A stretch of DNA of 63,873 nt, filler included, from Psammoneis japonica (GCA_008632985.1; 4 parts of 3 records of this genome joined end to end with filler, not necessarily neighbours in it), one strand, 5' to 3'. Counted from the whole stretch's first letter, positions 13,697 to 63,873 are shown. The notes: a model not told the origin generated them from the sequence alone. Numbers and translations: made by a program.

Positions 13697-13754
13697 TGTC
13701 TTTATTTTTTATGTGTCATTCTACGCAAAAGCGACATCAAATGCTAGTCAAGAA

Positions 13755-22600: not shown

Positions 22601-22800
22601 AAGCCAAATGTTTGGCTGCCAGATGCACAAGGACAATTGCAAGTTGTTTCAGTGCACTGCCCACTGGTGATGCCAAATCTGGCAAGTTGTCTCTCATGCT
22701 CCTGCTGCACTGTTTGTGTGCTGGGGGTGTGGGTCAGCTTGTTGTCAGAGTTGTGGGGTGGAAGCACAGCAGCACTTAAAAACCAGACTTTTGGTGTTTT
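19620..22800 (+). mobile_element. Heavily mutated Ambal-like LINE relic (post-RT region, RNase H, zinc knuckle, C-terminal domain)
   Basis: Decayed motifs: LQIMGMSK, NAHHLF..VSL, LCSDSS and MSSLHSDA (RNase H SDGS and SSxRSE), CSCC..NH knuckle, WRELWDSH..AHGHD...SWL; TA and CG depleted. Confidence 0.5.
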
Positions 22801-35507: not shown

Positions 35508-35819
35508 AATGGGGGTAGTAGTATCAATAAAGATAGATTGGTATCAGAGTGTTTCAATGCAAGCAAAACTTGAAATTGTGTGGTGAGCGTGACGACGGTC
35601 GCTCGTTGTTGCGGCTGGCCCATTCGTGAATGCGTAGAAACTGTACCAGAGAAGCCCGTAGAAAATCCGACGGAGTCCCGCTACGATTTTCGATTTTCGC
35701 TCGATGCGATGTGGGCACGTTTGCATTCGGTTAGTCGTAGGCTCAAGTAGAAACAATCAGTGGCCGAGACGGAAGTTGGCTTTCGTTCGTAATGAATGTT
35801 ATCTACTTATCGCTATTCT

Positions 35820-37359
35820 GCAATGCTCTGGAACAAGACATCGCACTTGATGTGGGAGCAACAATGAACAAGACATTGTGCAGACATGAAGAATGTCACC
35901 ATCTCTTGCTGCTTCCACTCTGGTGGGGGGGGGGGGGGGTTGCCCTCTCTCCCTGACAAGCCACATCTTCCTGCTGGAGACACCAAAACATCCCACCAGG
36001 TCTGACTGTCCCTGGATGCCCACCCCCCATCATCCCTGGGCACCCCCAAGTGTCCCCAGAGTGCCAAGAACTTTCCCTGGGCACCCCCTTCCCCCCAACG
36101 AAACCAGCCATGGCAGGAGCACCAAAAAGCTGGAGCTTGTCTGCAAACTCAGACTGTCAAAGCTTGCACAGCTCTTCTCAGAAAATGCAAATGGGTTTGG
36201 ACTCCTTTTTGTGAGTGCAAAATTCATCTTGCCCCAGCAGCATCGCAGAAGACATGCACCGGCATCCGGCATCAGCACATGCCGCAAAAAACAGCAACAA
36301 AGAAGAGCTGGGAAAACAAATCACCAACGTGGGCACTTGATCATGTGAAAATGCATTTGTGCAAGATGCAGTGCACAGTCTGCTGGCCCTCACACATTTG
36401 CAATGCATTGATTCCTCAGCCAGTTGTCATCTTGACAGTCACGCCAATTGTCTCCAGCTCAATGACACCCCACCCCCCAATGATTGTCCTCCATCCAACA
36501 TTCTTGTGACCCTTGTTGCCAGTCTGTCAGACAGATTGAAAGCACGATTGTGGGGCAACACATGCTCGCAAACAATTTGCAATGTGGGCATCACTTCTTG
36601 GCAGCTTTGGCTGTGAGACATGGGCATCACTTCTTGGGAAATGCAAGAGGAGTTTTGCCAAGTGAAAATGTTCACAGAAAACTGTCATCTTTTGGTTGAT
36701 GCAAAGATGTCTGACTGGCATGATGCGCACTTTGCTTTGGAGCTTCTTTGAGGCAATGATTGTCAGCTGATGCCACTGCTGCAAAGCAAGAGAGAAGCTG
36801 TGTTGCGCCACCTTTCTTCAGCATCTTCTTGCCAGCCTTGGCATTTTTGTGCCTCAGGTGCAGACCCCATGCACATGCACTCACACTCATCCTTCCAAAC
36901 TGCCAGGCAGCATGCCAGCTCTGCAGAGTCTTGGTGTGCTGATTCTGTGTGTGTCAAGCACCCTTGGGGTGTGTGTGATGTCATTTTCTGCTCTTTCAAT
37001 CTTCTCAATGTTGGCCATCAGCTGACTGCCATTTCCAGTTGCTCAATGTTGACATGGTTGGTTCTGCTGCACTTGCACAGACAGCTTCTGCAGCTCATGA
37101 CATGCCAGCAGAGCACCCACTTGCTGCCATCATGCATTTGGTTCAAAATGTTTTTCTTCAAAACACTTGCCATTGCTCTGCACACTCCCATTGTTGCCAG
37201 GCACAGCCATGAATTGAAGGTTGTTGTGCTTCACACAGGCCTTTTGCATCTTCTCCACTGCCAACATGTCACACAGCTTTCCTTGGTTTGCTGCAAACAT
37301 GGCACCTGCTTGAAAACTCTTGCTGCAGCTCCTGCCATTGTTTGCCTTGACAATGCAGG
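35820..37359. other. TpA/CpG-depleted hypermutated relic
   Basis: Essentially no TA; 36991-37049 matches 52857-52915 (59 bp, one mismatch), so it belongs to a dispersed repeat family. Confidence 0.7.
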
Positions 37360-37459
37360 NNNNNNNNNNNNNNNNNNNNNNNNNNNNNNNNNNNNNNNNN
37401 NNNTTAATTAATTAANNNNNNNNNNNNNNNNNNNNNNNNNNNNNNNNNNNNNNNNNNNN
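37360..37459. other. Artificial contig linker
   Basis: TTAATTAATTAA at 37404-37415 between N runs. Confidence 0.95.
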
Positions 37460-40244: not shown

Positions 40245-41510
40245 CTACATCATTTGTATTCGAGCGTCTCCCTTGCTGTCCGTATCGTTGCTTCGACTGG
40301 TAGCACTACCATCAAAGGAATATCCTTCTTCTTCCGGCCCAACCTCGGTGTCATCGGCAATGACACAACTCGTATCCTTGTCTTCGTTCTGCACTATGGC
40401 CATTTCCAAGTTCTTCTCTTCATTGTTCATTTGGTTATAATCATCATTGTCGCCTTCGACAATGTATCCGCTCTCGGTGTATTAACCGAATTTCTTTACC
40501 ATGAAGCGGGCATTTCAAATCAAAAAGGGGCGACCGCCATTCCCACCAAGCTACCGTTTGCAACCAAGGATGACGCAGAGTTAGAGAAGGCGGTCGTCAC
40601 AACACTGCCCATAGCCTAAAGGTAAAAAAAATTGTAAAACATTTGAGGGATATACAGGTAGATGTGAGTACCCTTCATCATATTCGAGGCGACAAGTGTG
40701 CGACGAGCTTGCGCTTACCTTGCTTCCACGTGCACCAAAGATATCAATCCACGACTTTGGCTTGTATTTGACAGCAGGCGAGGCTGGTTGGTAGAGCATT
40801 TCCTTGGTGGGATTGTTCAAGGCGTAGGAGCAAGCCTTGGCATCATTACGGCTGCAAACACAACGTAAAGGGACCGATGAAGTCTGACAAAAACAATGAT
40901 AACCAGACAGAGCGAGGAGAACAAGAGGAGCGTCAAGCGCAATCCCAAATAACGAATGACTGCATTCGTTCCCAACATGTTCAAGAGGAAGGATAGTGTG
41001 TTGATGGCTTGCCCGAAGAGTCCCATAAGGTGGTAAAGGCGGCGGTTGCGTCTTGCGACATGACGTGGTCTCCGGTATCAGGTTTGTGGCAACTCATACC
41101 TTCAAGACAAGGATGAAGATGATCGCCAAAGTAGTCTCACGCCAACACCTTCATGGTGTAATCATCAATGGTGACTTCAACCACGAAGAGGTATGAAATG
41201 GCGAAAATGCCCTTGACGTACTGATGGTCCCAGAATAGTTTGAGTCCTTCCAAGATTCCAGCCTTTCTTTCCTTCACCTTGCTGTTCTTCGACCAAGAGT
41301 ATACAGAGGGCACCAACAAGGTAACACTTGGCAGCAACCCAAGTCGCACCGTATCGATTCACCACAGTAGGACCAATGATACTTCCGACTTGGGCCATGA
41401 CTACCATGACTCCGTAACTGGCCTTGTCTGTCTCCAACGAAAAGTTGGAGTTGGCGAAGGACCATAAGGGCGATGTCATGGATAGTTTACTTCTCAACCA
41501 CTCACCAATA
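40245..41510 (-). pseudogene. NTT: NTT / TLC-family ATP:ADP (nucleotide) transporter pseudogene, 5' truncated
   Basis: [51 protein letters not shown]; stops and frameshifts; retains a GT-AG intron at 40718-40616. Confidence 0.82.
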
Positions 41511-41529
41511 ACGATGAACTTGTTGGGCT

Positions 41530-44390
41530 CCAAGCTGTGTGCACTCAAAGTGCCTTTTGCAGAGCAGCTGTCCAGCCACACAGAACTGAGGGTGCCACAG
41601 GCTGCCCTGAAGTTGCCATCATTGACATGGACAGTTGACATTTTCCCTCTTGCAGAGGTGATTGTGGGCCAGATCTAAAGAAGAAACCAGCACATGTGGA
41701 TTGAAAGCTGTTGGATGAATTCTGCCTCTCCTTTCCTTGCTCATGTCAGAGATGATGACCAGCCCAGGCAGAGGCATCAGAGTTTGTTGAGCAACCAGGC
41801 CAAAAGAAAGGAAACCAACAATGTTGATCACAGCATGCAGCAGCAGCAATTGAAACTTGGATGTGAGCCACCCATTGGATCTTTCTCCATGTGATTGACA
41901 ATGGCATAAAAAATGGCTGTTGTTGTGCTCCACTCTGCAAGTCTTGCTTGTTTGTTTCCTTGTGAATTTGCTGCCCCCACAGCAATTGCACAATGCATGG
42001 AATGACAGCAGCATCTCCCCCACTGCAGCAATCACTCCCTCTGAACTGACCTGTCAGTGGGAGCAAGAGAACCAAGATGTGCAAGCTCCTCCATTTCTCA
42101 AGAGGACACACAAATGGTGCAGAAAACTGTTGAAGTTTTGTGCCACAATTCTGCATTGGTTTCATTGCCACACCCTTTGCATGTTTTTCTGTGCAAGCTC
42201 TAGTGCAGATGCCATCTTTGTCTGATGGTGCAATGATGGCTCTTGCCTGCCTGTCAAGACCTGTTCTTTTGTTGACATGTCTTTGTTTTGTGATCATTGG
42301 CAATCTCATGCAGTGGAAAACAACTGGCATCAAGCCCTTGTGGTCAATTGCTCAGCACTCTTTTGGGCATTTTTTGTTCTCACGTGCAAAGTTTCTGCAC
42401 AAGTTTCAGCACAAATTCTGCATGTTCTGCAAGTCATTTCAGATGGACAATGCACCAAACTGCCAATTGCTGTCTCTCTGCATCTCTCAAGTGTCAATGA
42501 CCCCCTTCTCTCCATTGTCTGTTTAAGTTTCCTGTGTCACATGATGGGTGATCTTCCGTTGTTGCTGTTTTCAGAAGTTTGAAGATGAACCAACTCAGCG
42601 CGCATTGGCCATTCTTCCTTGTGCCGACGAGCATCAACACAAGTTTCAGCACATTTTCTGTGTGTCTCAAAAGTCATTTTGGATGATTGACTTGCCAAAA
42701 CTGCCAACTGCTCTTGGTCCATGCCTCTCCGGCATCAACAACTCCTTTTTTTCATTGTCCATTTAAGTTCTCTGCTCCATGCTGTGAACAATCCTCCATT
42801 GTTGCTGCTCCCAGAAGCACAAATTTGAGCCCAGTTCAGTGTGAGCTGGTGGTCAATTTGTGCCCCATTCCTTCTCATGTTGAAACTCTTCCAGACCGCA
42901 TTGGGCATTTTCCTTTTGAAGTCTTGTTGTGCTGGCACTGTTTTTGTTGTTGTCAGCTGTTTCTGGTGGGCACCACAGCCTTGAGGCATCAATCTCGACC
43001 ACTTGTCACACGTCCCTGCTGCATCACACAATGTGCTTGGGGTGTGGGTCAGCTTGTTGCTGGAGTTGCACCAGGGCAGAAGCACAGCAGCACTTCAAAT
43101 GCAGAGTTTGGGTTTTGTTTTGTTGACATTTTGTGCCAGTGCAGCACAAGGGAAACCCTTTCTGTTGGCAACAACATGGGAGTGCTCAGGACAAGGGGAT
43201 GTGAGCAGTGCACTGACATCTGGTGTGGACAAGGCAACAGCTCACCTCTTGGGTTCTTGCTCCACACTGTCTCATGATGGTGTTTCTCCTTGTGCTTGTC
43301 TCCCAGTCATTCAACCAAGCAAACACAAGCACAAAGTGTCCTGGACTGTGCTTCTGCAACTGCAATGGCTGCATGGCTGAAATCAATGTGATGACAGGGT
43401 TTTTCCACACTGTGCTTGACTTCTGATGAGCACCACCTGCCTTGCTTGCTGCTGTCTTCTGTGGCTCTTTTTTGCTGTTGGACTCCTGGGTTTGGTCTCA
43501 AAAGTTTTGGGATTTTTCTTGGCAGCTGGGCTTGTGGCAAGCTGTCAAATTTGTTGAGTGCTTGGCTTCCTGGAAATGCAAATGCAAGCTCTGGCAATTG
43601 AAGTTGCTTGACTGTTTTGTGCTGTGCTGAAACCACAGAGTTCAGCAAGTTTTTTGTTTTGTCGCAACATGAGGTGGCAAAGTCAGACTGTTTCAGTTTG
43701 AGAGCTGGGAAAATGCCAAAAAATGTGTCAATGGCATTTTTGTTTGGTTTTTGACAGAGGGCGCCAACTGCATGCCATGATTTGTGCATGCAAAACAGCA
43801 ATTTGTGGCAACCAGCAAGGCAAGGACCCTCAGACAGACAGCAGCAGAGGCGGCAGAGCTTGCAGGCCATGGCTGGCAACAGCCTTGTCAGAGCAAAAAT
43901 GGGGGGGGGGCAAGCTCTTGGTTTGTCATTTGAATGACAACAGAGTTGTCCACACCAACCCAGACAGTCAGGTTGCAAGTTGTTGGCAGGCAAGCTGTGA
44001 GAGTGTGCAGATGCATCACATGCTGCTGCCAGGGCAAAAGGAAACTCAACGGGGTGGAAAAGAAACAATTCTCCTTTTGGAAGAGGAGGGCCATGCTGAG
44101 AGACACCAGCTGGGTTGAGCACCTCAAATCTCCAGGACATTTGGCTGGAGAAGAGTTGTCACTTTTGCTGCTTCTTGTGAGCTCAGCAGGAGAAAGCAAT
44201 TGTCTTTGTCATTGGTGCCAACTGTGGCAGGGCTGCCCTGGAACAAAGCAGCCTGGCAACAACATGGCTGCTGCCTCAGAGGCAGCAATTCAGACCTGTG
44301 GAGAGAAAAAAGGCTGTCTGGCTGCTGCATGGGTTCGTGCTTGATTGAATGAGTTTTTTGACACTCCCAGAATCAGCACAGTTTAAACAC
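41530..44390. other. TpA/CpG-depleted relic, possibly a LINE 3' part
   Basis: TA loss; 43033-43105 (gggtgtgggtcagcttgttg...gaagcacagcagcactt) resembles 22716-22790 at the end of the Ambal-like relic. Confidence 0.55.
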
Positions 44391-44923
44391 TCATTGATGA
44401 ATGCAGCATCGTCTGTTCTGATGTGTTCCACGGCGCACATGCGCGAACACAGAGTGCAAATCCATGGATTTGGGACGCCATTTCCATTCCGAAGTTATCC
44501 ACTGTAGGGCCCATTCGGTCTCGGAGGCAAACGCGTGAGCGATTCGAAATCGATGGGAGATGACATCACATGTAGATTTGACAACGGCGTGACATCCGTT
44601 GGTCGCCTGAACTTTTTTGTCATGTTGACACATGAAAAAAGTCATTTCACTGCATGATTCTCGATGCATACTTTGCACTCACCATCAGTGTCGATCAGGA
44701 AGATCGTATGAACGTAAATAGTTTTTATGTGGTCACTTAAGTCTAATTATAAACGCGTTGGTCAGATAAAATAACGGATTCACATACATGACACAACGAT
44801 GAAAAACTGATCTTCGCGCAACTCGCTCACTTTTTGCGTGAGAACGGCAGGTCGTCAAATAGTGTGGGTAAACGCACATAACGACAGCGCTGACGTGGAA
44901 GGTCATCCTTTAAGTAATTCACC

Positions 44924-44956
44924 TTATGTGCGGCATAAAATTTATGCCGCACATAA
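44924..44956. repeat. 33-bp palindrome (16-bp arms, 1-nt centre)
   Basis: ttatgtgcggcataaa-a-tttatgccgcacataa; an extra half-site tgccgcacata near 44979. Confidence 0.9.
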
Positions 44957-45762
44957 ATCATAGGACATTTACAGGTTGTGCCGCACATAGAGGCGAATTT
45001 GTCACTTGCAAAGAAGGGCAATTTTAAAAGTCATCACACATTGCCCCTTTCTCATTTTAAAATCAAGTTAGTCAAACACAGCTTTAAACCGCCATGGTGA
45101 AGCGCGCACGGAATGACGATCTTGTGGCACAAATGTCACCAGTCTAACGCAAGTAACCAGGGCAGTGAACACAGAAAATGTGAAGTGAAGGCATTCTGAG
45201 CACAAAGAATTGCCGTTGTCAGCTGTTGCTTGCCCCACTGTCTCAGCTTGTCTCCTCGCCCACCCCAAGCAGCTTGTCTTGCTTCTTGCCCACTTCCTTC
45301 CTGCCACCATGCTGCGCACATTGATCAAAGCATTCTGATTTTCAACTCTGCCACAAAGTGCTCTAAGTTGGCAATGCAAGAGACCAAGGTCTTGCAGATG
45401 GGAGCTGGCCAGCACCGCTGCTGCTCTTCTTGGTGCCTTGCAAGGGCAGCGGCCGCGCATGACGATGTGCGCTGTTGAGCCGCCGCCTGGCACCAAAGCT
45501 GCAAGGCTGCACAAAGTTGGCTTCTCGCTTCTCTGTGTGTGGCTTCTTGACCATGCTCATGCCATCCTCACAAAAGCAAGCCTTTGTTTTCTCTCCCTGC
45601 TTCTGATGCTGCCTGCCTTGTGCTCCACGGCACACACAGGAGATCATTCTTTCTGGCCACCTCAGAGGATGCTGCTTGCCTGCTGTGAACTTCTGCTCTT
45701 TTCATCTTTTCTTTTTTTTGTTGCTCTGGCTGCTTGCTGTTGCTCCAACACACAGAGCTAAT

Positions 45763-45764
<2 letters not shown>

Positions 45765-45806
<42 letters not shown>
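45765..45806. repeat. (CTG)14 microsatellite
   Basis: Directly visible. Confidence 0.97.
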
Positions 45807-45812
<6 letters not shown>

Positions 45813-46129
45813 TCATGATCTTGGCGCCTCTCCGCGCAAAGCGTTGTGCTGGGAGCTCTGTGCCAAAGCTGCGAATCATGCTTGCACTCTCTCAATGGCA
45901 TCTTTGGCAAACTTCAGTGCTTTCTTGTGCTTGGAGATTCAGCGACAAGCGCTGAAGCAGTTTTTTGTGAGGCAGCTCTCAACAACAACTGGGCCACACC
46001 CCAAAGTGGGGCTGAAAGAAACACTTTGCAGGGCGCTGCTTGGTCATGGAAAACACATGCTTGGCTGGGCTGCTGGGGTGGCAATGAGCTCTTGCTGAGT
46101 TGCACTGCAGAGCATCTCAACTTCTTGCT

Positions 46130-46945
46130 TTTGGCACCCAAAACAGCCTCACAATTTTCCCTTTTGGCATCTTGTTCATCCCTTCTGCCTGTTTCTTCAA
46201 AAGACACAGGGGGGCTCTCTGTGGGAGCTCGTGCACAGTGCCACCCTTGCTTCTTTTGCTCTGCCTCTTGCAGCCATCAATCAGCACAGCAGCTGGACAC
46301 ACTGCTTCTGCACAAACTTCTTTTGTCTGCATGCCACACTTTGCCCCACAAGTTGTTCCTTGTCCTTGAGCGCAGCTGGCCTTTGGCGATGGTGTCGTGC
46401 TTGTTGTGAAAAATCATCAGCTTGCCCCACTTTAAAATCCAAGTTGCTTTTCTGTGCTGCTTGGTGCCTTGCAGGTGACTGCATGCCTTCTTGAGCCACC
46501 ACCCTGGTCAAGGCTGTGCCAAGTTAACTTGCTTCTTTTTGTCTGTGTGCGTGGCTTCTTGACTTCGCTCATGGCGTGTCATCGACTGTGCGCTGAAACA
46601 GTTCTTTGTGAGGCAGATCTCAGCATCACCAAAGCAGTCTCACAATTTTCCCCTTCTGGTGTTTTCTTTGCCTCTTCCGCCAGGTTCTTCAAGGCAAAGC
46701 ACACACCACCAGTCTCCTCTCTGTGCGCGGCTCTTGTGCCCCCCCCCCTCTGGCTTCTTCTTCTTGCTCTGTGCCTCTTGCAGCCACTGGTGAAGTGGCC
46801 AGACACTCTGTTTCTGCACAAGCTCCTTGTCTGCATGTTGCACTTTGTCTCATGTGTTGTTCCTTGTCCTTGCATGCAGCTGCCTCGCCTTTGGTGATGG
46901 GTGTTTTTGTGCAGTTGTCAGGTCTCCCCACTTTAACATCCGGGT
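46130..46945. repeat. Degenerate direct duplication (about 490-bp period) within a mutated relic
   Basis: ctcacaattttccc...tgcctcttgcagcca...ttctgcacaa...ttgttccttgtccttg occurs twice. Confidence 0.7.
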
Positions 46946-47089
46946 TGCTTTTGCGAGCCGACTCTCGCTTCGCTGGAGTCGAGTCAATCAAAACCTTCTG
47001 CCCACACCAGGTAAAAAATGCCGTGAGAACCACACAACTCGTTTGAAAGAGTTCCCTGTCGTTGACGAACCACCAAGCCATCAACCATG

Positions 47090-50000
47090 GCAGCCCATGT
47101 CACAGCCATGCATGCAGCATGCCGCAGACTTGGCTTCACGAACGAAGCATCAGCAGCTCCCACTGCTGACCAGGGAGTCGACACTGTCAAAGGAACTGTG
47201 TCGTCTTGATGATCAGGAGGTCGAGACCTTGTGCAAGGTTGTGCATTGCCCAGGAGGTGCAGCAGGCAGCAGAGTGAGTCCACAACCCAACCTGGGGACT
47301 GCTGCATCACTGCAGGCTGAGATGAACCTCAAGCTTGCGGCTTTTGCTGCTCGTCACCACTGTGAGTGCATCTCATGCACGTTGCGTGTGCTGCCGACAT
47401 CACCCTCGACCATGTCAGGGGGTGCCGCCACCTTTGTGCAGCAGATCAGCCCATGAGAACCCTGACACCCCACCTGCTGTCATCAAGAAGGCTGGCTGAA
47501 GATGATGGAAGCCATCCACAAGCATCTTCGTGCCAGTTGCGGGAAGACCAAAATGCCCCCAGCCTGCATGGTCCAAGAGAACCAGGCGGTTGCACCGGAG
47601 GCAGATGACAACACCAACAGCTGCGCCAATGCCTGTGCCAAGATGATTGTCCATGCCCCCCACTTCGCTGCTGGGGCTGGCCTGCAACCCACCAAAACAT
47701 TTGCCACGCTGATGACGCCAAGGTTTGGGAGATTGTTGCTGCAATCACGTGTTCTTGCTGGTCACATGTGAAAAAGGCTCAACACAATCAGGATGGCAAG
47801 ACAGCCTGCCTGAACTTGTGCAACCACTTCTTGGGCCCAAATGACACAGACAACATGGCATTGAGGGCCTCAAGGAGTGTGGCCATGCCAGGATTGATGA
47901 ACGCTCCAAGGTGCACCACCTTCTGTAGAGCGTCAAGGATGTGTCCCTTGACTCTGTCAAAGCACAGGTTGTGGCCAGCATGATGCTGCGCAGTGACTTT
48001 GATGGGTGTGTTGTCTCATGTGAAGACTTCATCAAGCAGTTCAAGCTGGATGGCAAAACTAAGAAGCTTTGTGTTGCCACCTTGAAGGAGGCAAAGCGCC
48101 AATGAGATGACATCATTCATGAGAAAGATGTCAAGGACAAGTGCTGCCCTGACAAGGAGTGCAAGCAAATGTCCCCAAAAGCACGGAAGAAACCAGAGTT
48201 CCTGCACAATGCTTGTGGTGGCCAAGGTGCAATGTCTGTCACCAAAAACGCAAAGCAGATCAAGGCCCTCACCAGCGCGGTTGCAGCCATTGCTGCTCAT
48301 GTTGAGGACCAGCAGGACTGTGCTGCTGGTGAGTCCAAAGAAACCAAAAAGTGGGCTGCTGTCAAGCAGAAGCACAACCACTCTAACTTCCAGTCACTGA
48401 AGAACACAATGGCCAACAACTGGCATGACAAGAATGGCAACCTCAAACCCGGCAGGAAGGAGAAGGAATGATCCTCTCTGGCCCTTTGTCTCAGTCTGCT
48501 TCGAACCCTGCGCGCAACCCAAACAACCATGTGAGAAGCCATGCACGCTGAAGCTTGCGCCAAGTTGGACAGTCATGCAGATGCAAATGCACTGGGCAAG
48601 CATGCTTTAATTGTGCTTGACCATGATTGTCCAGCAGATGTCACAGGTTGCAACCCCAAAAAAGGGTGCCAGCAAGAGTCTGTGCACTGTCAGCGGAGCC
48701 GTCACATGTGCAGACCTCACCTCGGGCCACCAACATGTCCTGGCAGTCCACCAGGCAACACATGTCCTGCACCTCAAACACAACCTTTTGTGTCCCATGA
48801 AGCTGTGGCTGAATGAAGTGGAAGTCAATTTGCAACCAAAATTCCTGCTGACAAAGCCTGACAGTGAGTCACATGCAGTGACGTTGACAGATGCAAACAA
48901 GGATGAGCTCCTGATTCTGTTGGAGGCAAATGATGTCACGAGTTGCTTTCCCACCTCCAAACCCACTGCTTCTGAGCATGAAGCCACCGTGCAAGATGGC
49001 ACAGCAGCAGAACTTGCTTGCGAGTCCCCGGAATGGGACCCACAAAAACTGCCAACTTTCAAACCAGAGAGGATTCCATGACAGACTCTCTTGGTCATGT
49101 GCCTGAGACTGTGGACAATGCACATCCTCAGATCCACATCATGAGCATGAAGCTCTCATGCACCATGGTGCAAGAGACCTCAGACTGTCTGGGAAATCAG
49201 CCACTTTGAGACATCTTGCATGCATGTGATGACCACATGCTGCTTGCCTCGATTGGTCTCTCTTCACTCAAGATGACAAAGTGGGGACTGCATGTTGACA
49301 CAGAACATTTGGTCAAGAACTGATCTGTCAGTGTCAAGGATGCTGAGAACACTGTCAAAGTCACAATGCAGCATGGTGCATGAATGGTCCTCCATTTGAT
49401 GCTGTCTTGGAGGTTTTGGACCAACAACCAACAGTTGCAACACAGGCACATTGCAAAGGAGATGCACTCCAATGCCTTGGTTTCCTTGACTGAGTTGAGA
49501 AGGAGCAACACCTGTGCGCAAGTCTTTGGCATCATGTCCAATGGTTGGGCATGGGCTTGTTCCCTCAGATCTAAAGGACCAGCACACAAAGCACCGCCGT
49601 CCTTGCTCTTTGCACAAGATGGGGTGCCCCACACAATGATTGTGGACAGAGCAAAAGACCAGGTGTTGGGTCAGTTCAGCAAGAAGGCCAGGGAGGCTGA
49701 CTGCCATGTCAAGCAGACTAAACCCTGTGCTCCATGGTCAAACTTCACTGAGGGCACTGTTCGTGAACTCAAGCGGGGGAGTGGGACGCAAGATGGTGAA
49801 GACTTGAGCCCCAAAATGTCTTTGTGACAATTGTCTTGAGCTTGAAGCTCTTGTCTGATCAAACACAGACCACAACATTTGTGAGTTAGACAGAGAGGTT
49901 CCAGAAACCGCAGTGTCCAGACAGACAGCCAACATTTCGCACACATGCGAGTGTGGCTGGTGCGACTGGGTCATGTTTGGGGACACGGCAGTCTCATTCC

Positions 50001-52520
50001 CCGAGGACAAGGAGGTCCTGGGGCATTGCCTTGGTCCAAGTCGGGACATGAGTCCCACCATGACAGCCAAGATGCCAAAGGACAATGGACAAGTTGTCCA
50101 CCATTCATCCTGTCAACCCTTGAACCCCAAGGAACAGTGCCGCGAGATGCACTTGGCATTGCGCAAGAAATTTGACGGGCCAACAGAGGCCAAGCCAGGC
50201 CCAGGCATGATGGTTGGAGACATCAATGACCCTGATGCCACAACTCCCACTTTTGATCCCTGCAAGGACAATGCTGACCAAGATGCTCCTGCGAGTGCAC
50301 CCAAGAATGGGGACAATGCACCTGATGCTGCTTTTGATGTTCATGCAAACTCAGAAGCATTGCTGCCTCATGGGGACACCCAGCAAACTGGGACAGTCAA
50401 GCAGTGCAAGCTCAGTTTGGATGGAACACCGATGGGCAGGGCCAATGACAATCCCGTTCTAGACACTCGCACACACAAGGTCGAATTTCCTGATGGCCAG
50501 GAAGCAGAGGTCACAGCCAATGTCACAGCTGAGAACATGTTCACACAATGTGACAACAAAGGCAGTCAGCGCTTGCTTCTGGACGCCATTGTTGATCACA
50601 AGACTGATGGGCATGCAGTCCAGAAGGATGACACCTTTCCACAGGATGGCAGAGGACACCAAACCATGCAAAAGATGACCAAAGGATGGCACCTTTGTGT
50701 CAGCTGGAAGGACGGGACCACGACTTGGGAACGCCTTGCAGACTTGAAGGAATCCAACACAGTCAAGTTGGCTGAGCATGCCAGAGCTTTGATCAGGGAT
50801 GAACCAGCCTTTGCGTGGTGGGTTCCATGTTCAATGTGCCTTAAAGAAATGGCAGCAGATCATTGCTGCAATGAACAAGTGGTGTCACAAATGGACACAC
50901 AAGCACAGGATGTGCACTCCCAAGATGTGCAATGAGATGGTCAAGATTGACCAGGCAAACGGCAACCGCCTGTGGCAAGACACCACAGATGAGGAAATGG
51001 GTGTTGTCAACAAGGCATTCTAGATCATTGATGACAACAAGGAACTGGCAGGATGCCAGCATGTCAAGTGTCACTTGGTCTTCAACGTAAAGAGCCACAA
51101 GACTTCAAGCGCAAGGCACACCATGTGGCTGGTGGGTGTGCCACACAGATGCTCCCACCACCTTGACATGCACAAGCATTGTGTCACGTGAGAGTGTGAG
51201 GATCACCTTCATCTGGCTGCTCTGAATGACTCAGAGGTCAAGGCAGCTGACATTGAAAATGCTTGTGTCACTGCACCCAACAGTGAGATGATCATGATGA
51301 CTTTAAACCCAGAGTTCAGGCACAATGCAGGGAGGCGTGCAACAGTCAAGCACGCACTTTGCAGTTTGAAGAGCACAGGCACGGCCTTCAGGAATCACCT
51401 GGCCTCCTGCGTGCACCATCTTGGGTGGAAGCCCCAGATCCCAATGCATGGCTTGAGGAAGTGGTCTGATCTAAGGACAGGTTTTGGCACTGCGTGCATG
51501 CACTGCTGCACGTTGATGATGTGCCAATGGCACACCACAATGCCATGAGCACACTCAAGGAGTTGGATCATTGCTTCAAGATGAAGCCTGGTTCAATCGG
51601 CAACCCTGAGATGCATCTGGGTGCCAAGATCCAAGAGGCACAATTGCCAAATGGCATCTGCGCATGAGGCATGAGCTTCAGCAAGTGCATCCAGCAGGCT
51701 GTCAAGAATGTGGAGGTGCATCTGGACAAATGCTGCCCTGGACAGACATTGCCATGCTGGGCATTGACTCCATTTCCACAGGATTGTCATCCCAAGTCAC
51801 AGATGCATTGCCTGAGCTTGAGGCAGAGGATGCCCAGTTCTGCCAGTTGCAGGCAGGTGTCCTGCAATGGACAGTGGAACTCAGACACGTCGATCTGATG
51901 ACAGAGGTTTTGGAGCTTGCCTCATTTCTTGTTGTGCCCAGGGAGGGTCCCCTTGAGGCTGTTTTCCATGCACATGGATGCCTCAAGACAAGACACAATG
52001 CCAGGCTGGTGTTTGACCCAACATGACTGGACATTGACATGTCTGACTTCAAGGAATGTGACTGGAAGTCATTTCATGGGGACGTGCAGGAAAGAGAAAT
52101 CCCACCCAATGTGCCAGAACCTCCAGGCTTGGAGGTGGATCTGCACTTGTTCGTCAACTTGGATCATGCAAATGATGAGTTGACCAGACGTTCATGCACC
52201 GGCTTCTTCATCTGCGTGCACATGACCTCAATGGTGTGGTTTTCTAAGTGCCAAAGTGCAGTTGAAGCCTTGGTTTTTGGAGCCAAGTTTGCAGCCATGA
52301 AACAAGGCATGGAGTCTTTGCACAGCTTGCAACATGAGCCAAGGATGATGGATGTGCCATTGACTGGTCCATCCCACATCTGTGGGGACAACATGTCAGT
52401 TGTCCACAACACACAAAGTCCAGAGTCCACTTTGAAGAACAAGTCAAACTCCATTTGCTGCCATGCACCATGAGGGAGTCGATGGCAATGGGTGAGTCAC
52501 TCACTGGACACATTTGTTTG
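47090..52520 (+). mobile_element. Ty1/copia LTR retrotransposon relic of diatom CoDi type
   Basis: gag (LCKVV..PGG...AE.NLKL), protease (LDSHAD), integrase (GVP..MIVD, PWSN..EGTVRELKR), NPVLDTR and WKDG..TWE.L.DLKES, RT (VSRESVRI, DIENA, HVDD), RNase H (DHA.D..TRRS.TG, GDNMSV) in copia order; many stops; LTRs not identified. Confidence 0.92.
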
Positions 52521-52919
52521 GCATGCCACCATGTTAGAGTGACCAAATGTGGCCGGAGAGTAAATTGGGTCAAGCCGACTCATTGTTCAAGTCATCAACT
52601 TGAGGGGACTGAAAAATTTACCATGTGATCAATTTGAATTAGTTTGGTGTGCTTTGTCATTGGCAATTGGGCACAGAGCGGTTCCTCAGGTTTAGATCTC
52701 ACTTCTAGATAACTGGCATGATGTTGCAAATCTTTCTTTTGGTCTTGTCCCCAGTTCATGCGACTGCAGGGCAATTTGTTCATCTCCCTGAAGCCTTGCC
52801 CATTTCATCAGCACTGCCTGCACTTTGTGATGCTTTCTCTCTTTTCCTTGCTGCATCTCTTTCAATCTTCTCAATGTTGGCCATCAGCTGATTGCCATTT
52901 CCAGTTGCTCAATGTCCAC

Positions 52920-53019
52920 NNNNNNNNNNNNNNNNNNNNNNNNNNNNNNNNNNNNNNNNNNNNTTAATTAATTAANNNNNNNNNNNNNNNNNNNNNNNNN
53001 NNNNNNNNNNNNNNNNNNN
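52920..53019. other. Artificial contig linker
   Basis: TTAATTAATTAA at 52964-52975 between N runs. Confidence 0.95.
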
Positions 53020-56888: not shown

Positions 56889-57291
56889 GAGGACAGGACT
56901 TACCAATACATAGAAATACATAGCGTTGTTCATCATTGTCTACAGTGGTATCGCGCCGTGCTTCACTCGTTCGCGTTTCGACGAGCGACTCTCAATTCTG
57001 GTGAGCGGCAGTGCCTCCGTTGCTTTTCTACGACTACAAGTACGACCAGGTACGATCAATACCACGACTACCCATGACCACGCGTGACGTGTACTTCGGT
57101 CTATAGTATGCTCTGTAGGCGCCAGTACTGATTCTACGTGAGTGCACAGTGCACAGCACAGATGTGCTGTATCCATTAATTAAATTCTCGTACTGCGGAG
57201 CTCGCACGTAGAATTCTATGGGCCCAATGTCACACGGAGTCCCACCTGGGGCTGGAACGCGTCGGGGCCACCATTTCAACACAATCAACAA

Positions 57292-58640
57292 ATGCCGGCA
57301 GACTGTCAACGTACGATGCATGCCGCAACACCTTCAGCCCCTTTCTGGGCTAAGACAATGAGTCTGCTTTTGGCCACCGTGTCATGTCAGAAAGTCATGG
57401 GACATGAAGTTGAGGTCAGTGTTGATGGCTCCGTCGTCCAGAAAACGATCCATCAGCAAGAGCATCGGGTTCGCTTCATCAACAAAAGCAGGTGCCCTGT
57501 CAACATGTGCTTTGAGGATGACAAGGAAGGCAAAAAGATCTCCACAGCCGAGGTTGGAGAGGACCGGACCATCAGGACTCTGCACCATGCCATCTTCTAC
57601 GTCACAAGACTTGGGGCTCGCGATGGTCTCTTCGATCCCGAAACGGACCTGCAGCACAGGTTTCGTGCATCCTTGCCGGATCAAGTCTTTGAGATCCCAG
57701 CAGTGGCAGAACCCTCCAAGAATCCCTGTCACAATCACTTTGCTGTCCTCTGCCCGAAGAAGGCCAAGCAGGGCGATTGCAGTCGAGAACCAGGTTGCGC
57801 AGCAATTCACTGCTGTCAGTCATGCGATGACGAGCTTGATGCAAGTCGTCTCATTGACCCAAAGGTCCGGTGCACCCGCGAATTCCTCAACATGACAGAG
57901 CCTGCTTGGCATCTGGGCGATCTCAACAAGCTCTTTACTTTGTGGGCAACCGACCCTCGCTGTGCCCAGTGCGAACCAAAGGCACACAGTTCTGTTCTCC
58001 CAATGCTGGTGCACACGGAGGAAAGGATGGCCCGTGGGTGTTGACATTTGAGAACTTTCTAACCAGCGAAGAAGTGGATGCTCTCATTGAGGGCGGGTGC
58101 TTGGAAGGGTTTCGTCGGAGCCGCACTTGTGAAGGTGAGAATGCGAACAAAAAGAGGACCACAGCGGAAGGCCGCACGAGCTCCAACGCTTGGTGCCCAC
58201 AGAAATGCTCGGCTTTGGAAGGAGTCAAGTCCGTTTGGGACAAGGTCCAAGCAGCCACTGGGGTGGCCACGTCGCATTGTGAGAGAATTCAGATCCTAAA
58301 ACGCGAAGAGAACCAGTTCCATGGCACTCACCACGATGCCAAGAAAAGAGATGTTTCGCTCAGTGGACCGTGAATCCTCACCTTTTTGCTGTGCTTGAAT
58401 GATGTTGAGGAAGGAGGTGAAACCAACTTTGATGCATTGGACATGGCGGTGAAACCAAAGAAGGGAAGGGTCCTGATTTGACCCTCCATTGCGGATGATG
58501 ATCCTGAGTGCTGTGAGAAGCGCGTGCATCACCAGGCGAAGAAGGTGGTTGGGGAACAAAGCATGCCGCAAATTTCTGGATTCGTCAGCATGATCTTGAA
58601 ATTCCAAACAGGTGGAAGTGCAACCCGACCACTGGCTGGC
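57292..58640 (+). pseudogene. P4H: ShK-domain prolyl 4-hydroxylase (2OG-Fe(II) oxygenase) pseudogene
   Basis: ShK-like C..C..GDC..P...HCCQSC; GPWVLTFENFL, RTSSNAWC, THHD, LNDVEEGGETNF, VKPKKGR, HQA; frameshift and stops. Confidence 0.85.
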
Positions 58641-58749
58641 TAGCCCCATTTCCCGCACGCAGTTCGGATGGCCCAGGAAGCACTCCAACAAGAGAAGAGA
58701 GCATGGAAAGACCCGATTGCAATGATGCAAAGTTCTTGCCAGCATTCAA

Positions 58750-59560
58750 AAGGACATCTCTAACTCCCATTGGGAAGCCCAACTGGCTGATTCTGAGAAG
58801 ATCAAAGGTCCAGAATGGACCACAGTGCACAGAAATTCAAAGAGCATGAGATGAATTTAAATTAACTTGACAGAACGTCGCTTTTGCCAGTCATGACGCA
58901 TGAATGTCAAAAGTGTCAAATGGATCCGACAATGCAGTTCGATGACCCACGCACTGTCCAAGTGGGGTCGCAAGTGTGAACAGCATCCCAGCTTCGTTTG
59001 TGGCTTTGCTGCGTGGCCGGTTGCTGGACGACTGGCAATTGATCATTCACAGCTTGCGTGTTGGATGCAAGACTTCCTTTCTCCATGAACTCAAATGTCA
59101 CAAACATTTGCTTCTTGTCAATCATGGCACCAATGACCTGAATGACCCTGGGATTGTGCAGCTTCACCAGCTGTGCCATGTCCTCTTTCATCAAACTCGA
59201 CATGCAGCCCCTGCTTCTTGTTTTGTCAGAAGAGGACCCACAGGAAAGGTTGCTGTTGAGTTGAGAGTGCCCCTGGGATGATGCTTTCACAGCAACAGGC
59301 AACAGGAGCACTGTGAAGGCACCCTTTGGTCATGATGCCAAAGGATCCTTCTCCCAAAATCTTGCCAGTCAATTGCAAATCTTCTGGTTTGATCACCCTC
59401 TGCTGCTTGGCCTTTTGGCATTCTTTTCTCACAAGAAAGAGTGCAAAGAAACTGGCAAAACAATTGCGGCAAAGGCCCAGCAAGCGATGACAATGTCGAC
59501 AATGGCACCCTCGCTCAAGCTGTCTGAGTTCTGAGTTGACTCTGGCTTGCACATGTTGAG
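58750..59560 (-). pseudogene. Receptor-like TKL protein kinase relic
   Basis: TM-like segment followed by ILGEGSFG, L..P.VIQVIGA and EFMEKGSL; frameshifted and TA depleted. Confidence 0.72.
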
Positions 59561-60127
59561 CGACTTTTGGCAGATGGACAAGAGAGGGAGGGTTGTGTCA
59601 TCGTGATTGTCACAGTCACACGTGGTTTGTTGCCAAGCAGCATCAATCAAGTCTGCCACCCCAAGTCTGTCCTCACAAGTCTTTTCAAGTCAAGCCACAA
59701 AACTCTCTTTGAGATGCTCAATGATGTGGTCATGCATTGCCGCAAAGGAGATTGCAGCCTTCAGGAAGCACACATCAAGAATGGTGTTTTGGGAACCAAG
59801 CGCTTTGCAACAGCATCCTTGCATTGCTCAGCTCCATTGATCTGTGCAGAAATGGGGAGCAAGTGCTCATTTCGAAGAGACAGAGATTTTCTGTGTTGTG
59901 TGAAAATTGTGAGATTATTTTGTGCAGAGCACGCGCATGTGCGACAGCAAGACATGGGGAGTTTGAGTCCTTCCGCGGAATCAGTCATGCTCGGTGCTGC
60001 ACGCATCATGCACAGACACTTCATGCAAGGTGAGTCACTTGCGCAACAGCCAGTCACGCTGGTCTCAGTCATGTGGACACTCCTGCAGCCTGTCACAGGT
60101 CTTGCACTGGGAGTCGCGTTGTCCAAT

Positions 60128-60565
60128 TGCAATATACAGCTACTAATAAGAGTTAATGTATCACGGCGACGTGTTACAGCCTTTAAAAGTCACAAAGGGC
60201 GTGACAAAATAACCTTTTGTCTGCATGCACACTGCATTATGAATTCATAGCGGAGTGGTTCATCTCGCATCCATTAGGCTGGAGGCCAGGGGTTCGAAAC
60301 CCCGAGTGGGAGTTGTCTGCAGCAACGTTGATCACTGTCGAACGCGTAAAACTCTGTGCAGTTCTGCATGTTCCTTCGTACGCACCCACACTGTTCCGCC
60401 AAAACCGTGCAGTGTCAGTACACGTGAGCGTAGGTCGCGTGATACATGGGGAGGAGTGCAACATACAGCTACTAATAAGAGTTAATGTATCACGGCGACG
60501 TGTTACAGCCTTTAAAAGTCACAAAGGGCGTGACAAAATAACCTTTTGTCTGCATGCACACTGCA
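60128..60565 (+). mobile_element. 438-bp TRIM-like miniature LTR element
   Basis: 109-bp direct repeats 60128-60236 and 60457-60565 (TG...CA, one visible mismatch); PPT GGGGAGGAG abutting the 3' LTR; 4-bp TSD CAAT; empty site in the paralog near 61848. Confidence 0.88.
60241..60312 (+). promoter_or_regulatory. tRNA-like segment with Pol III A and B boxes inside the TRIM
   Basis: A box TAGCGGAGTGG (60248-60258); B box GGTTCGAAACC (60291-60301) within a GGGG-TTCGAAA-CCCC T-arm; no convincing acceptor stem. Confidence 0.65.
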
Positions 60566-62161
60566 CAATGCATGCTTCTGCAGAATCAGTGTCACTGCGG
60601 ACAGCCTGCAGACGCAGGCAGGAAAGTGGCATCATCGGCGGCCATGGCAGGGATGCCTGCTGCACTCGCCCCCCATGACAAGGTTGCACGAGTGAAAAAA
60701 AGGGGCCCACTGCTGCCAAGGGACATGTTTTGTTGTGCCCGACAGCACACACTGCCTTCCCACTCATGAAGGGAGTCATTGTCATCATCTTGACATTGTT
60801 TCAGTGGACATTTTGCCACGTTTGGCCTCTGGAACATGTGCAAGCGAACACTGCATTCAGGAGCATCAAGACATTCATCAAATTGTCCAAGCTGCCAAGG
60901 TCACACAGGTCGCTGTCATGTTGGCCGTTGTCAGATTCTCAAGACCCTTTGCTGCCATGTCATCAGTGTCAGCATCAGAGTCTTCAGAGAGGGGCGCATT
61001 TTCGAAGACATCAAGTTCTCCATCTGCCTTCGCGGCATCACATGCCATGTGTTTCAATGCATTTTTTTACAGCCCATTCAACGATGACATTGAGTTCTTC
61101 ATTGTCGCGTGCGTCAGTTGTTTTCTGAGCTGACATCATCTTGGGTCACTTGACTTGAAGTTTCGGTGTCCAGCAATCATCAGTGCCGTGATTGCCTGAA
61201 CCGTGAAGCATGCACACAGTGTCACGCATCATGTCTGACTTGCTTCTTTGCCGCCAATGTTTGCTCACTTGGCACGCAATCGAGCTGTCTGCTGCACTTC
61301 TTCATCTTGGCATCTTCAGGGTCATTTTGAGGTTCATCTTTAGGAGCGCTCATTGTCAAGTGGCAAAGGTTCTGAAAAGCACTTGCACACGATTGACATT
61401 TTTGCATTTTTGCTTTCTGCTGCTCTCTCAATTGAACAGTCACAGAGAACAGGTGATTGACATTCTGTCGCACTCCACTCTTTTCTGCAGAGCGGCTGAC
61501 AGCAATGGCTGGTTGTTGAATGAAGGCTGTTCTTGCACTTGCTGGGAGCAATGTTGCTGCAACCCATGCAGAAATGGGGAGCAAGTGCTCATTTCAAAGA
61601 GACAGAGATTTTCTCTGTGTTGTGCAGAAATTGTGAGACCATTTTGTGCAGAGCATGTGTGTGTGCAGCAGGAAGACATGTGGAGTTTGAGTCCTTCTGC
61701 GGAATCAGTCACACTCAGCACTGCGTTCATCCCACGCAGACCCTTCACACAAGGTGAGTCACTTGCACGATGGCCAGTTGCATGGGTCTCAGTCATGTGA
61801 ACACTCCCACAGCCCATTGCAGGTCTTGCGCCAGGAGTCACGTCATCTGATGCACACTTCTGCAGGGTCAGCATTGCGGTGGACAGCCCACAGATGCAGG
61901 AAAGCGGCATTGTTGGCAGCCATGGCAGGGATGCCCACTGCACCATCTCTTGGATGTCCTTGTTCCACCCATTTGGCCAATGTCAAAATGCCACTTTTGG
62001 CACTGAAGCTCACACCAAAAAGCTCATTCAGTCCCATGAAAACAAGCCTGGCGCATGCTATCATGAACCACATGTTGCAAACAATGTTCAGTTCAACACA
62101 CAAGTTAAATTTTTGTCACTCAGCAGAGCTTGCAAAAAGCTTTGCCAGCTTTCAAAAGCCA

Positions 62162-62282
62162 GCACCAGCTTTTGTGGCACCAAAAAATGGGTGCCGGGGG
62201 CTTTTGTGGCACAAAAAAAATGAGCGCTGGCTTTTGCGGCACCAAAAAATGGGTGCCAGCTTTTGTGGCACCAAAAATGGGC
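62162..62282. repeat. About 30-bp minisatellite x4
   Basis: gcttttgtggcaccaaaaaatgggtgcc units with an internal GGCACC/GGTGCC inverted repeat. Confidence 0.9.
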
Positions 62283-63873
62283 TTGGATGACAACTTTGCA
62301 GCTCTGTCTCTTGATGAGATGGTGGCCTGAGGACGAGCCCTGCTTGTGCCACGTGATGCTTGCACCAGTGCAGTGCAACACAAACAAAAGCAAACATTGT
62401 GGGAAGGCCCTGCTGTGGATTTGATGAAGATCAAACTGGCCGGCTTTTCATCATTTTTGGAGAAGTTCATGACTTCAAGCTCAAATGAATCTGCAACAAA
62501 CAGCCTGTTGACCAAGCAAAACATGCCAAATGAAATGTCGCAGACACGCATTTTAAATGACATCCTTGTCTTGTTCATGCACCATCAGATGCTGTCCAAG
62601 AAACCTTTTGGCAACAAGCTGCTCTCTGCAAGCATGAATCAAACACAAGGAGGAGGACGAGGCTTCTTCAGCAACAGCAGCAAGATGCTCATCAAGTGTG
62701 TGGCCATTGGTTTGGATGCTGGCCTTGTTGGATGCAATGCATGTGCCGTGCAGCGTGACAAACAGGAGTGGCAAAAGAGTGCCATGATGCTCAAAGGGGT
62801 GATGTGGATGCCACTTCACACCACTGTTGAACAGCACATGGAAATGATTCAGCAGGCAGCTCATCTCCAAAAATGAGAACAACAAGGATTTGACCTAGAG
62901 CGAAATTGGATTGGTCTGTTGCTGCACAACATTTTCAAAAATGCGCACTGCCAGGACATGAACATTGAAGAGTGGTGTCACAAGCAAGGAACCGAACTTG
63001 CGATTCCCAACTTGATGGTGTCAATGAAATGGCAGATTGATGATGATGCAATCTGTGCTGCCAGGATGACCACAACAGCGGGGACACATTTGCTTCAGGT
63101 TGAGGTGTTGAAAGTTTGTCCCACTGACAACCGCCGCAATGACAGCGGTGAAAGCACAGAGGAGCAAACAGGCTGCAACTGCCATGTCATCAGGTTGGAT
63201 GATGACAAGAACGCAATTGCTGCCAGATGTGGCAGCCTTGCTGGCCAGGTGGAAAGCTCTGGCCCTGGTTTCTCCTGTGACTTTGAAAACTGCTCGGGCT
63301 GTTCGTCATGGAAGAATCAGTCATTGTCGGTGCACTGTGCACTCTGCACCCCCACGAACCCAAACAAGTGCCGCAGTTGATTTTTGTGAAGTTCACTTTG
63401 TGCCAGTCTCTGGCCTGCATTCCATCTTGCTTCTGACTTTTAAAGACTCGAGGGAAAGTTGGCATTCAATCATTTGTGCTTGCGACCTTGTCCTTTTTTC
63501 ATCATGCTGCAACAAAGCATCGTGGACTCATTTTCCTTCTTCTTCCTAAGATGCAACATGCTGTGCTGTTGATTGTGTTCTTTTGCAACAGCAGCATTTA
63601 CACTCAAACTTTAAGCCTGATGCAGATGAAATGCTTCCTGATTGACTGACCATGAACAAACCAGAATCCAGGAAAGATTGAAGATTGGATCTCATCAGAT
63701 CGATCGACCCTGAAACAAAGCTCGTCGCATCACCACAATGGACTCTTAAGTCTGATTGCGTGTTCAATAATTGCAACCAGGAAGAAGCAAGAACATGCTC
63801 CCAACTTTTCCCACTGTGTGATGTGCTGCATGTTGGCCCCTCGCCACCTGCGTTCTATCTGCACAACGAACTC

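Follow-up and report, generated by a model that had tools for sequence, protein, structure and literature searches.

Flank-dependent loss of TpA from a copia relic and other blocks of Psammoneis japonica DNA

A 63,873-nucleotide stretch of DNA assembled from the diatom Psammoneis japonica (GCA_008632985.1), referred to here as the window, contains between positions 47090 and 52520 on the + strand the relic of a Ty1/copia retrotransposon, in which CpG has decayed and the dinucleotide TpA (TA) has been almost completely erased. What removes TA from such a sequence, and does the agent read the bases around its target? The original prediction, made from the sequence of the window, held that TAY (Y, pyrimidine) is erased through A>G changes while YTAR (R, purine) survives. 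The explanation that we favour, at somewhat better than an even chance, is a locally confined A:T>G:C mutator that attacks TpA on either strand and is guided by the bases lying 3' of the A it targets.

Surviving TA sites in the relic and in six other domains

Base composition predicts approximately 311 TAs between 47090 and 52520, and 14 are present (observed/expected ratio, o/e, 0.05), accompanied by a CG o/e of 0.26, a CA o/e of 1.76 and a TG o/e of 1.98. The survivors lie at 47926, 48060, 48384, 48608, 49572, 49719, 49887, 50460, 50842, 51021, 51088, 51304, 51472 and 52245; twelve are YTAR (CTAA 6, CTAG 2, TTAA 3 and TTAG 1), with the remaining two being GTAA and GTAG. A hand count of about 11 YTAR among about 13 survivors had suggested this near-total share, and all 11 of the places named for it are real, each coordinate lying one base 5' of its TA; omitted from that list were the YTAR site at 48384 and the RTAR sites at 47926 and 51088. 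The same bias had been claimed for 19900-24800 and is found there in 16 of 18 TAs (Fisher p=1e-11, compared to p=1e-8 for the relic).

The window was read as five contigs joined by three artificial linkers (44 N, TTAATTAATTAA, 44 N; 10266-10365, 37360-37459 and 52920-53019) and one gap of 313 N (6058-6370). Domain edges that coincide with a linker or the gap are therefore contig ends, and the joining leaves the adjacency of the relic to an Nramp gene not established. Every linker brings with it three TTAA sites, a possible source of error when surviving TAs are counted by hand, and all ranges counted here leave these sites out. The depleted set consists of seven domains (D1 to D7, 26.0 kb) and was compared with 28.5 kb of normal DNA from the same window; for domain-wise tests D5 was split into D5a and D5b, the latter being the relic, to give eight blocks. 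Normal DNA has a TA o/e of 0.56, a CG o/e of 1.00 and a CA/TG o/e of approximately 1.2, with mostly 6-20 TAs per 250-base bin, while the depleted blocks have a TA o/e of 0.04, a CG o/e of 0.26, a CA o/e of 1.81 and a TG o/e of 1.84, with 0-2 TAs per bin.

Across all depleted domains, YTAR accounts for 53 of 70 surviving TAs, while normal DNA has 164 among its 1114 (Fisher p=1.6e-27), corresponding to 76% of survivors compared to 14.7% in normal DNA and 17.7% pooled in intact relatives of the relic. The excess is equally apparent against the first-order composition expectation of 0.31 (binomial p=1.8e-14), in each of three contig groups taken alone (20/26, 21/26 and 12/18; p=5e-12, 3e-13 and 1e-6), and when the 12 of 14 in the relic are set against 73 intact copia relatives of the same family (p=6e-8). 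That there is no motif, and that composition, selection or an assembly artefact produces the YTAR excess, has on these figures a probability close to negligible. Linker TTAAs are indeed present in the window, yet they fall outside the counted ranges, and YTAR is scarce both in normal DNA and in the intact relatives; selection for YTAR is not credible in a relic that is dead, with stops and frame changes, and contigs of a public sequencing run, possibly of the same sample, repeat the TA-poor stretches. These contigs, of which 951 aligned to the window from one run that may be the assembly's own sample and none from a second, include a match of 330 bases at 47946-48275 with 0 differences. They also include many diverged copies, the differences being chiefly transitions as judged from 40 of the 721 differing places, a number too small for counting contexts. 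At 44207-44208 and 44216-44217 the window reads TG and a public-run contig reads CA, and at these places an ancestral TA or CG would seem to have mutated one way in one paralog and the other way in another.

Graded survival and the direction of change

Survival was expressed as both-strand counts relative to normal DNA, with expectations that use normal DNA or distant relatives as stand-ins for the ancestor, and it differs widely among the NTAN tetramers. TTAA survives at 0.54, CTAA/TTAG at 0.35, CTAG at 0.16 and GTAA/TTAC at 0.05, and every remaining class lies between 0.00 and 0.02. The TAY and RTA classes are thus lost and YTAR is relatively retained, as had been expected of such a tabulation, with depletion that is neither equal across tetramers nor explained by base composition alone. 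The formulation that TAY is erased and YTAR survives captures the dependence of the loss on the flanks but is too absolute, as YTAR is lost more slowly rather than spared.

A second layer of preference is evident at the +2 base. With strands pooled, A occupies +2 in 76 of 140 surviving half-sites versus 592 of 2228 in normal DNA, and the survival of YTAR sites climbs from 0.11 through 0.48 to 0.70 of the normal-DNA expectation as the number of T-A-R-A half-sites goes from 0 to 1 to 2 (Fisher p=1e-4); by contig group the effect of A at +2 gives p=0.005, 0.011 and 0.19, recurring in two of the three. An additive half-site hazard model fits the 15 site-class counts reasonably, with hazards of 2.8 for T-A-Y (a floor), 1.5 for T-A-G-B (B, any base except A), 0.6 for T-A-A-B, 0.15 for T-A-G-A and approximately 0 for T-A-A-A. 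Sites of the TTTAAA type number 7 where 7.3 would be expected without any mutation, taking normal DNA as the stand-in, and TAAAAA survivors are found at 19931, 22965, 41907 and 47012. A at +2 adds protection, and TAAA is almost immune. The motif is therefore a preference in rate, graded from T-A-Y (fast) through T-A-R to T-A-R-A (slowest), with no on/off rule, and it probably acts strand by strand.

Graded survival would equally suit an origin in repair, in which TpA is attacked evenly and the lesion or mismatch is better removed at YTAR and TARA sites, and sequence cannot split unequal damage from unequal repair. We nonetheless regard this as decidedly unlikely, because the strand-wise bias in products described below would require the additional assumption that repair senses what lies 3' of the lesion on the damaged strand.

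The direction of change can be followed at codons of the relic, the identity of which as a Ty1/copia retrotransposon is assigned from homolog alignment because Pfam searches of the relic itself (six frames with X at stops, and six in-frame pieces) gave no match at E<=0.01 and only chance-level matches at E<=1. A 358-residue open frame at 49859-50935 served as query and identified 173 relatives; among the best 120 of these, most carry PF07727 RVT_2 and some are named from Fragilaria crotonensis. In tblastn the 120 homologs tile 48560-52540 in the order of pol and in at least seven frame segments, pointing to a pol coding remnant on the + strand (protease-integrase-reverse transcriptase) with frame changes and stops. 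One intact homolog, P0004, has RVT_2 at 828-1023 (62 bits) and, weakly, rve at 327-390. In DNA, even the closest of the 73 related loci share only about 65-68% identity with the relic, so that ancestors at silent sites are not inferable, and the peptide patterns used to fetch the loci contain Tyr, so that mutated copies would have been missed and the lowest TA o/e among them, 0.39, is uninformative. Conserved codons were defined by at least 70% agreement among at least 30 aligned homologs, giving 665 codons.

The relic differs at 208 of these 665 codons, and 156 of the changes are explicable by one step. None of 26 conserved Tyr codons has been kept, there now being 14 Cys, 10 His, 1 Val and 1 stop in their place. 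The contexts of the changes indicate two transition processes, one at TpA and one at CpG: a T lies directly 5' in 24 of the 31 cases of A>G and an A directly 3' in 21 of the 22 cases of T>C, while C is the 5' neighbour in 45 of 54 cases of G>A and G the 3' neighbour in 15 of 21 cases of C>T. Of the 24 adenines changed to G at TpA, 21 have a pyrimidine on their 3' side (13 C and 8 T); 14 of these are in Tyr codons, in which the 3' pyrimidine is forced, and saturation masks any difference between C and T at +1. Within a Tyr codon the A always stands in T-A-Y, while the T stands in R-T-A only when preceded by a purine, and as transitions preserve the class of a flanking base, the 5' class at Tyr codons is reliable. 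After a purine Tyr has become His in 8 cases and Cys in 5; after a pyrimidine, His in 2 and Cys in 9 (Fisher p=0.047, or 0.058 and 0.039 at consensus thresholds of 0.9 and 0.5), so that 8 of the 10 Tyr>His changes follow a purine, as had been claimed for most of them. Five changes of Leu to Pro or Ser, from CTAA, CTAG or TTAG to CCAR or TCAR, show that YTAR is slow and not immune.

Strand-wise attack at T-A-Y makes a further prediction, namely that TG derived from TA occurs as TGY and its complement as RCA. The NTGY/NTGR ratio is 1.03 in normal DNA (1.02-1.05 in its four large stretches) and 1.31 in pooled depleted DNA, where YTGY/RTGR reaches 1.49. When normal DNA was mutated in silico, NTGY/NTGR was 1.10 (1.02-1.18) under a context-free process, 1.31-1.37 under strict T-A-Y and 1.23-1.28 with a 20% leak, the corresponding values for YTGY/RTGR being about 1.10 (maximum 1.25), 1.53-1.60 and 1.35-1.42. 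Six of the eight domains (D1, D2, D3, D4, D5a and D7) exceed the context-free range for NTGY/NTGR. The ratio of the relic, 1.14-1.15, is weak on the normal-DNA baseline of the window; its own family, represented by 34 intact relatives of at least 4 kb among the 73 fetched loci, gives 0.81 unmutated, 0.92+-0.09 context-free and 1.12+-0.14 under T-A-Y, compared to the observed value of about 1.14. On the coding strand, comparison with intact relatives reveals gains of 17.6 per kb for RCAR and 3.4 per kb for RTGR, conforming to the T-A-Y model, and with strands pooled and the symmetric CpG share subtracted, approximately 85% of TA-derived products lie in the predicted direction, in agreement with the 9 of 11 Tyr codons that became Cys after a pyrimidine.

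A direct view of individual sites is offered by a 160-base repeat with a mutated copy within D2 (20323-20483, + strand) and an unmutated copy at 35511-35668, with 73% identity between the two. The normal copy holds 9 TAs and the mutated copy 1. Six GTAG, ATAG or GTAT sites have become GCA or ACA and one GTAC has become GTGC, and no change of RTAR to RTGR was found in the mutated copy.

A second alternative bears on this product evidence. A duplex tetranucleotide might be recognized as a whole, with YTAR and especially TTTAAA-like sites being poor substrates, and the base that is changed might be chosen irrespective of its flanks; the A-tract-like TAAAAA survivors could then mirror duplex shape. 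This we consider unlikely, as the pooled ratios of 1.31 and 1.49 are higher than any context-free simulation gave (at most 1.18 and 1.25), the context-free range is also exceeded in six of the eight domains, and the relic fits the T-A-Y simulation of its own family. In addition, RTA became RCA in 6 of 6 sites of the repeat pair, and Tyr after a pyrimidine became Cys nine times and His twice.

Several observations nonetheless weigh against a strand-wise mutator, and the first three speak for whole-site recognition. D6, the domain least confounded by CpG loss, has an NTGY/NTGR of 1.06 and a YTGY/RTGR of 1.25, both within the context-free range, and these ratios fit a context-free model unless D6 descends from a sequence, in part a prolyl-hydroxylase-like gene copy, whose starting ratio was low. 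On its coding strand, the relic has gained YTGY and YCAY about equally (8.8 and 8.6 per kb), as a context-free process would have it, in a class balance that is noisy (standard deviation among stand-ins of 2-7 per kb). The Tyr test comprises 24 codons, and its p of 0.047 rises to 0.12 when three Tyr codons of D6 are added, one of them a His after C, the homologs in D6 being few (7) and distant (35-49% identity) and thus a poor basis for the test. A>G at A-T-A-A accounts for two Lys>Glu changes, against about two background events expected. Finally, the ancestors are stood in for by normal DNA or by relatives of about 65% identity, and what can be said of the agent is read from the fossil footprint in one assembly. 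For the proposal of strand-wise A>G at TAY, the tetramer survival, the fate of Tyr, the repeat pair and the excess of TGY and RCA all speak in favor, with the product test remaining weak in the relic unless its own family provides the baseline and with D6 failing to separate the models.

The evidence for strand-wise attack at T-A-Y would apply equally to a primary lesion on the thymine of R-T-A, for example a modified T that mispairs with G, the two being complementary descriptions that are formally identical in all sequence tests. Excision routes from such a lesion should leave transversions, and the TpA changes here are transitions; moreover, we know of no enzyme that would turn T with such efficiency into a base that pairs like C. 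We therefore hold a thymine target to be quite improbable, and in the part of their work considered here the authors of a study on Bigelowiella natans likewise prefer adenine deamination (10.64898/2026.01.13.699255).

Under the explanation that we favour, the relic and the six other domains would have been rewritten after they became resident DNA. The two adenines of each TA step would be attacked independently, each according to its own 3' flank, such that RTAR would yield mainly RCAR and YTAY mainly YTGY, RTAY would go either way, and YTAR would decay slowly and supply the survivors. Ordinary CpG decay, a separate process, would strip CG from the same blocks to a varying degree.

The substrate, CpG decay and the arrangement of the erased blocks

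The two strands are equally affected. At TpA the coding strand of the relic has 24 A>G and 21 T>C changes, and neither CA nor TG predominates on the + strand of any of the eight domains. The erased blocks contain not only the copia relic but also high-copy repeats and a broken gene copy of host type, a frameshifted 2-oxoglutarate-Fe(II) (2OG-Fe(II)) oxygenase gene predicted to be prolyl-hydroxylase-like (57325-58621 in D6, + strand). Seven homologs of the latter were found at 35-49% identity, five of them with PF13640 and one from Ditylum brightwellii; the tblastn segments shift frame near 57990, and the four conserved Tyr are now 2 Cys, 1 His and 1 Arg. Strand balance, together with the erasure of noncoding repeats and of a host-type gene copy, indicates that the substrate is DNA and not retrotransposon RNA.

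These features bear on the possibility that retrotransposon transcripts were edited from A to I by an ADAR- or ADAT-like enzyme and the changes fixed by reverse transcription. A preference for T(U) at -1 is common to the mutator, ADARs and fungal Tad2/Tad3, whether strong or moderate (PMC10661471, PMC9600606). The published accounts, as far as consulted, place an ADAR2 hot spot at 5'UAG (PMC10661471) and describe ADARs as having a slight excess of G or A at +1 and fungal Tad2/Tad3 editing as preferring U at -1, with A/G enriched and C/U depleted at +1 (PMC9600606). Both systems thus favor a purine at +1, the opposite of the pyrimidine preferred here, where T-A-R is slow and T-A-Y fast. They also act on RNA of one strand, whereas both DNA strands are equally changed here (24 A>G and 21 T>C; 14 Cys and 10 His from Tyr), CA and TG are balanced in every domain, and a host-type gene copy and noncoding repeats are erased. 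An origin in RNA editing is accordingly extremely improbable.

TA erasure and CpG decay share domains, which lends some appeal to error-prone patch synthesis by a polymerase resembling DNA polymerase eta, recruited by T:G mismatches that arise from deamination of 5-methylcytosine. This polymerase has a WA>WG bias (W, A or T) known from immunoglobulin hypermutation, and TA is a WA motif. Its other motif, AA, is without depletion (AA o/e 1.20 in depleted DNA versus 1.15 in normal DNA), and only 5 of the 31 A>G changes in the relic follow A. D6 has lost nearly all TA despite largely intact CpG, and the hypermutations reported for two viral regions of B. natans all fall on TpA (10.64898/2026.01.13.699255). 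Taken together, this route is very improbable. The extent of CpG loss differs greatly at equal TA depletion, with 20 CGs retained in the 5.15 kb of D2 and 99 in the 2.75 kb of D6, so that the erasure of TA and the decay of CpG are distinct processes. The loss of CpG to TpG and CpA would fit decay through cytosine methylation. The oxygenase gene copy, TA-erased with its CpG mostly kept, further indicates that the process strikes host-type gene copies and can precede CpG decay. Surviving CpGs prefer G+C flanks (GCGC 0.64 and CCGG 0.47 versus TCGA 0.15 and ACGA/TCGT 0.17, relative to normal DNA), a tendency opposite to that of the surviving TAs with their A/T-rich flanks.

The individual domains vary in content and extent. 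D1 (6400-10250) holds 7 TAs (11 over 6371-10265) and has an NTGY/NTGR of 1.40. In D2 (19800-24950; ratio 1.36), where TA and CG are both nearly gone, 19 TAs are left, 16 of them YTAR. D3 (35950-37350; 1.46) has 0 TAs and 11 CGs and stops at a contig end, and D4 (41500-44300; 1.44) has 6 TAs, 4 being YTAR. The high-copy repeat 5' of the relic, D5a (45250-47089; 1.71), holds 6 TAs, including 5 YTAR, and has a summed depth of public-run contigs of 665-1880 versus about 85 at 44000-44297. D6 (57250-60000; 1.06) retains 11 TAs with 7 YTAR, and D7 (60700-63500; 1.27) retains 7 with 5. Contig ends terminate three hypermutated blocks, and at borders that lie within contigs (such as 19750, 24950, 41500, 57250, 60000 and 60700) the count switches between 0-2 and 6-20 TAs per 250-base bin.

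Unmutated islands occur within the erased DNA at 60000-60700 (27 TAs in 700 bases) and 44400-45150 (about 30 in 600). The first of these interrupts a repeat unit whose other copy, at 61567-61943, is uninterrupted, and it holds 117-base direct repeats (60128-60244 and 60457-60573, 96.6% identity). The islands look like insertions that are younger than the mutator or exempt from it. The segment 1-6057 is also TA-poor and was considered as part of the phenomenon, then set aside because RTAR is retained there (62 of 94 TAs). Its + strand is strongly purine-rich (GC skew about 0.4, AT skew about 0.3), and its minus strand carries long open frames that gave no Pfam match. On the minus strand at 10310-13708, an unbroken frame of 1132 residues with a predicted 3'-5' exonuclease domain (PF01612, E=6e-11) begins at a contig end.

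Relation to known systems and significance

The closest likeness is to B. natans, in which mutation-accumulation lines yielded 231 mutations in two viral regions, 230 of them A>G or T>C and all of those at TpA (10.64898/2026.01.13.699255). In the portions of that work available to us, Mettrop et al. describe integrated giant-virus and virophage DNA and propose adenine deamination (10.64898/2026.01.13.699255). Both cases involve almost exclusively A>G and T>C at TpA, confined to foreign or mobile stretches, and a long-term footprint of low TpA with raised CpA and TpG. They differ in that de novo events were recorded there in a chlorarachniophyte, while a fossil footprint is seen here in a diatom; the erased DNA here consists of retrotransposon relics, repeats and a gene copy, with CpG decay overlaid, and its TA o/e of 0.04 is closer to saturation than the Rho of 0.45 given for the nucleocytoplasmic large DNA virus region of B. 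natans. The main text of that report contains no analysis beyond the dinucleotide, the words "context", "trinucleotide" and "flanking" being absent from it (10.64898/2026.01.13.699255). Our literature search found TpA-restricted hypermutation for B. natans only, with no diatom report and no flank motif, and a search for diatom deaminases found no paper. What is new here is the set of tests of fate by flank, the +2 effect and the contrast with the preferences of ADAR and ADAT.

Repeat-induced point mutation (RIP), which operates in Neurospora and other ascomycetes, converts CpA to TpA and so enriches TA. It resembles the present process in its local and near-saturating transitions that kill mobile elements, its dinucleotide context and its sharp edges, and it differs in direction: TA is raised there, whereas here TA stands at 0.04 and CA/TG at approximately 1.8. 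RIP is also triggered by duplication, while in normal DNA of the window each copy of a duplicated 1540-base segment (25375-26883 and 31315-32811, 6 kb apart with 84.9% identity) still carries 53 TAs. In this one pair simple duplication is not seen to trigger the process, a result that may reflect the age of the pair or a threshold of the process.

A third comparison concerns TadA, whose native tRNA target is U-A-C-G. Natural TadA works on a tRNA loop and not on chromosomal DNA, yet its context, with a pyrimidine (T) at -1 and C at +1 of the target A, would fit the fast T-A-Y class here, in which saturation masks any preference between C and T. The TadA-derived editor ABE8e-A48E is described, in the section consulted, as preferring YAC (PMC13109818). 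Judged by its footprint, the signature would thus be TadA-like in context and unlike ADAR or fungal Tad2/Tad3. Among stramenopile deaminases, the LmjF36.5940-like family, which has a Rossmann domain, and the deaminase-SAM-tudor proteins, as listed in the portion examined of Iyer et al. 2011 (PMC3239186), are leads only. We infer that the agent may be an enzyme that is attracted by silent or repeat chromatin and there converts adenine in DNA to hypoxanthine by deamination; adenine deamination would be the simplest route to A:T>G:C, bearing in mind that a lesion on A in T-A-Y and a lesion on T in R-T-A look alike in sequence.

Context signatures have previously led from mutation spectra to enzymes, both for AID/APOBEC and for RIP. 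The present signature makes ADAR-like and fungal ADAT-like specificities poor fits, provides an oligonucleotide assay for candidates (TAC and TAT versus TAG, TAA and TAAA), and permits a direct test of whether the diatom and Bigelowiella processes are the same. The YTAR and TARA sites, in turn, act as a slow clock after saturation of the fast sites, suited to dating and mapping genome-wide. Should the agent be a natural adenine deaminase of chromosomal DNA, it would represent new biology of interest for base editing. More broadly, we raise as a tentative possibility, with less than an even chance, that diatoms defend their genomes by mutation, using a DNA adenine deaminase directed to chromatin, and that other algae, chlorarachniophytes among them, perhaps do the same, given the TpA signature in common. 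The specificity of such an enzyme would be definable (T-A-Y fast, T-A-R-A refractory) and unlike that of ADAR and ADAT2/3. If true, this would be the adenine counterpart of RIP and APOBEC, the work of a TadA-like or a new deaminase and a natural editor of adenine in DNA.

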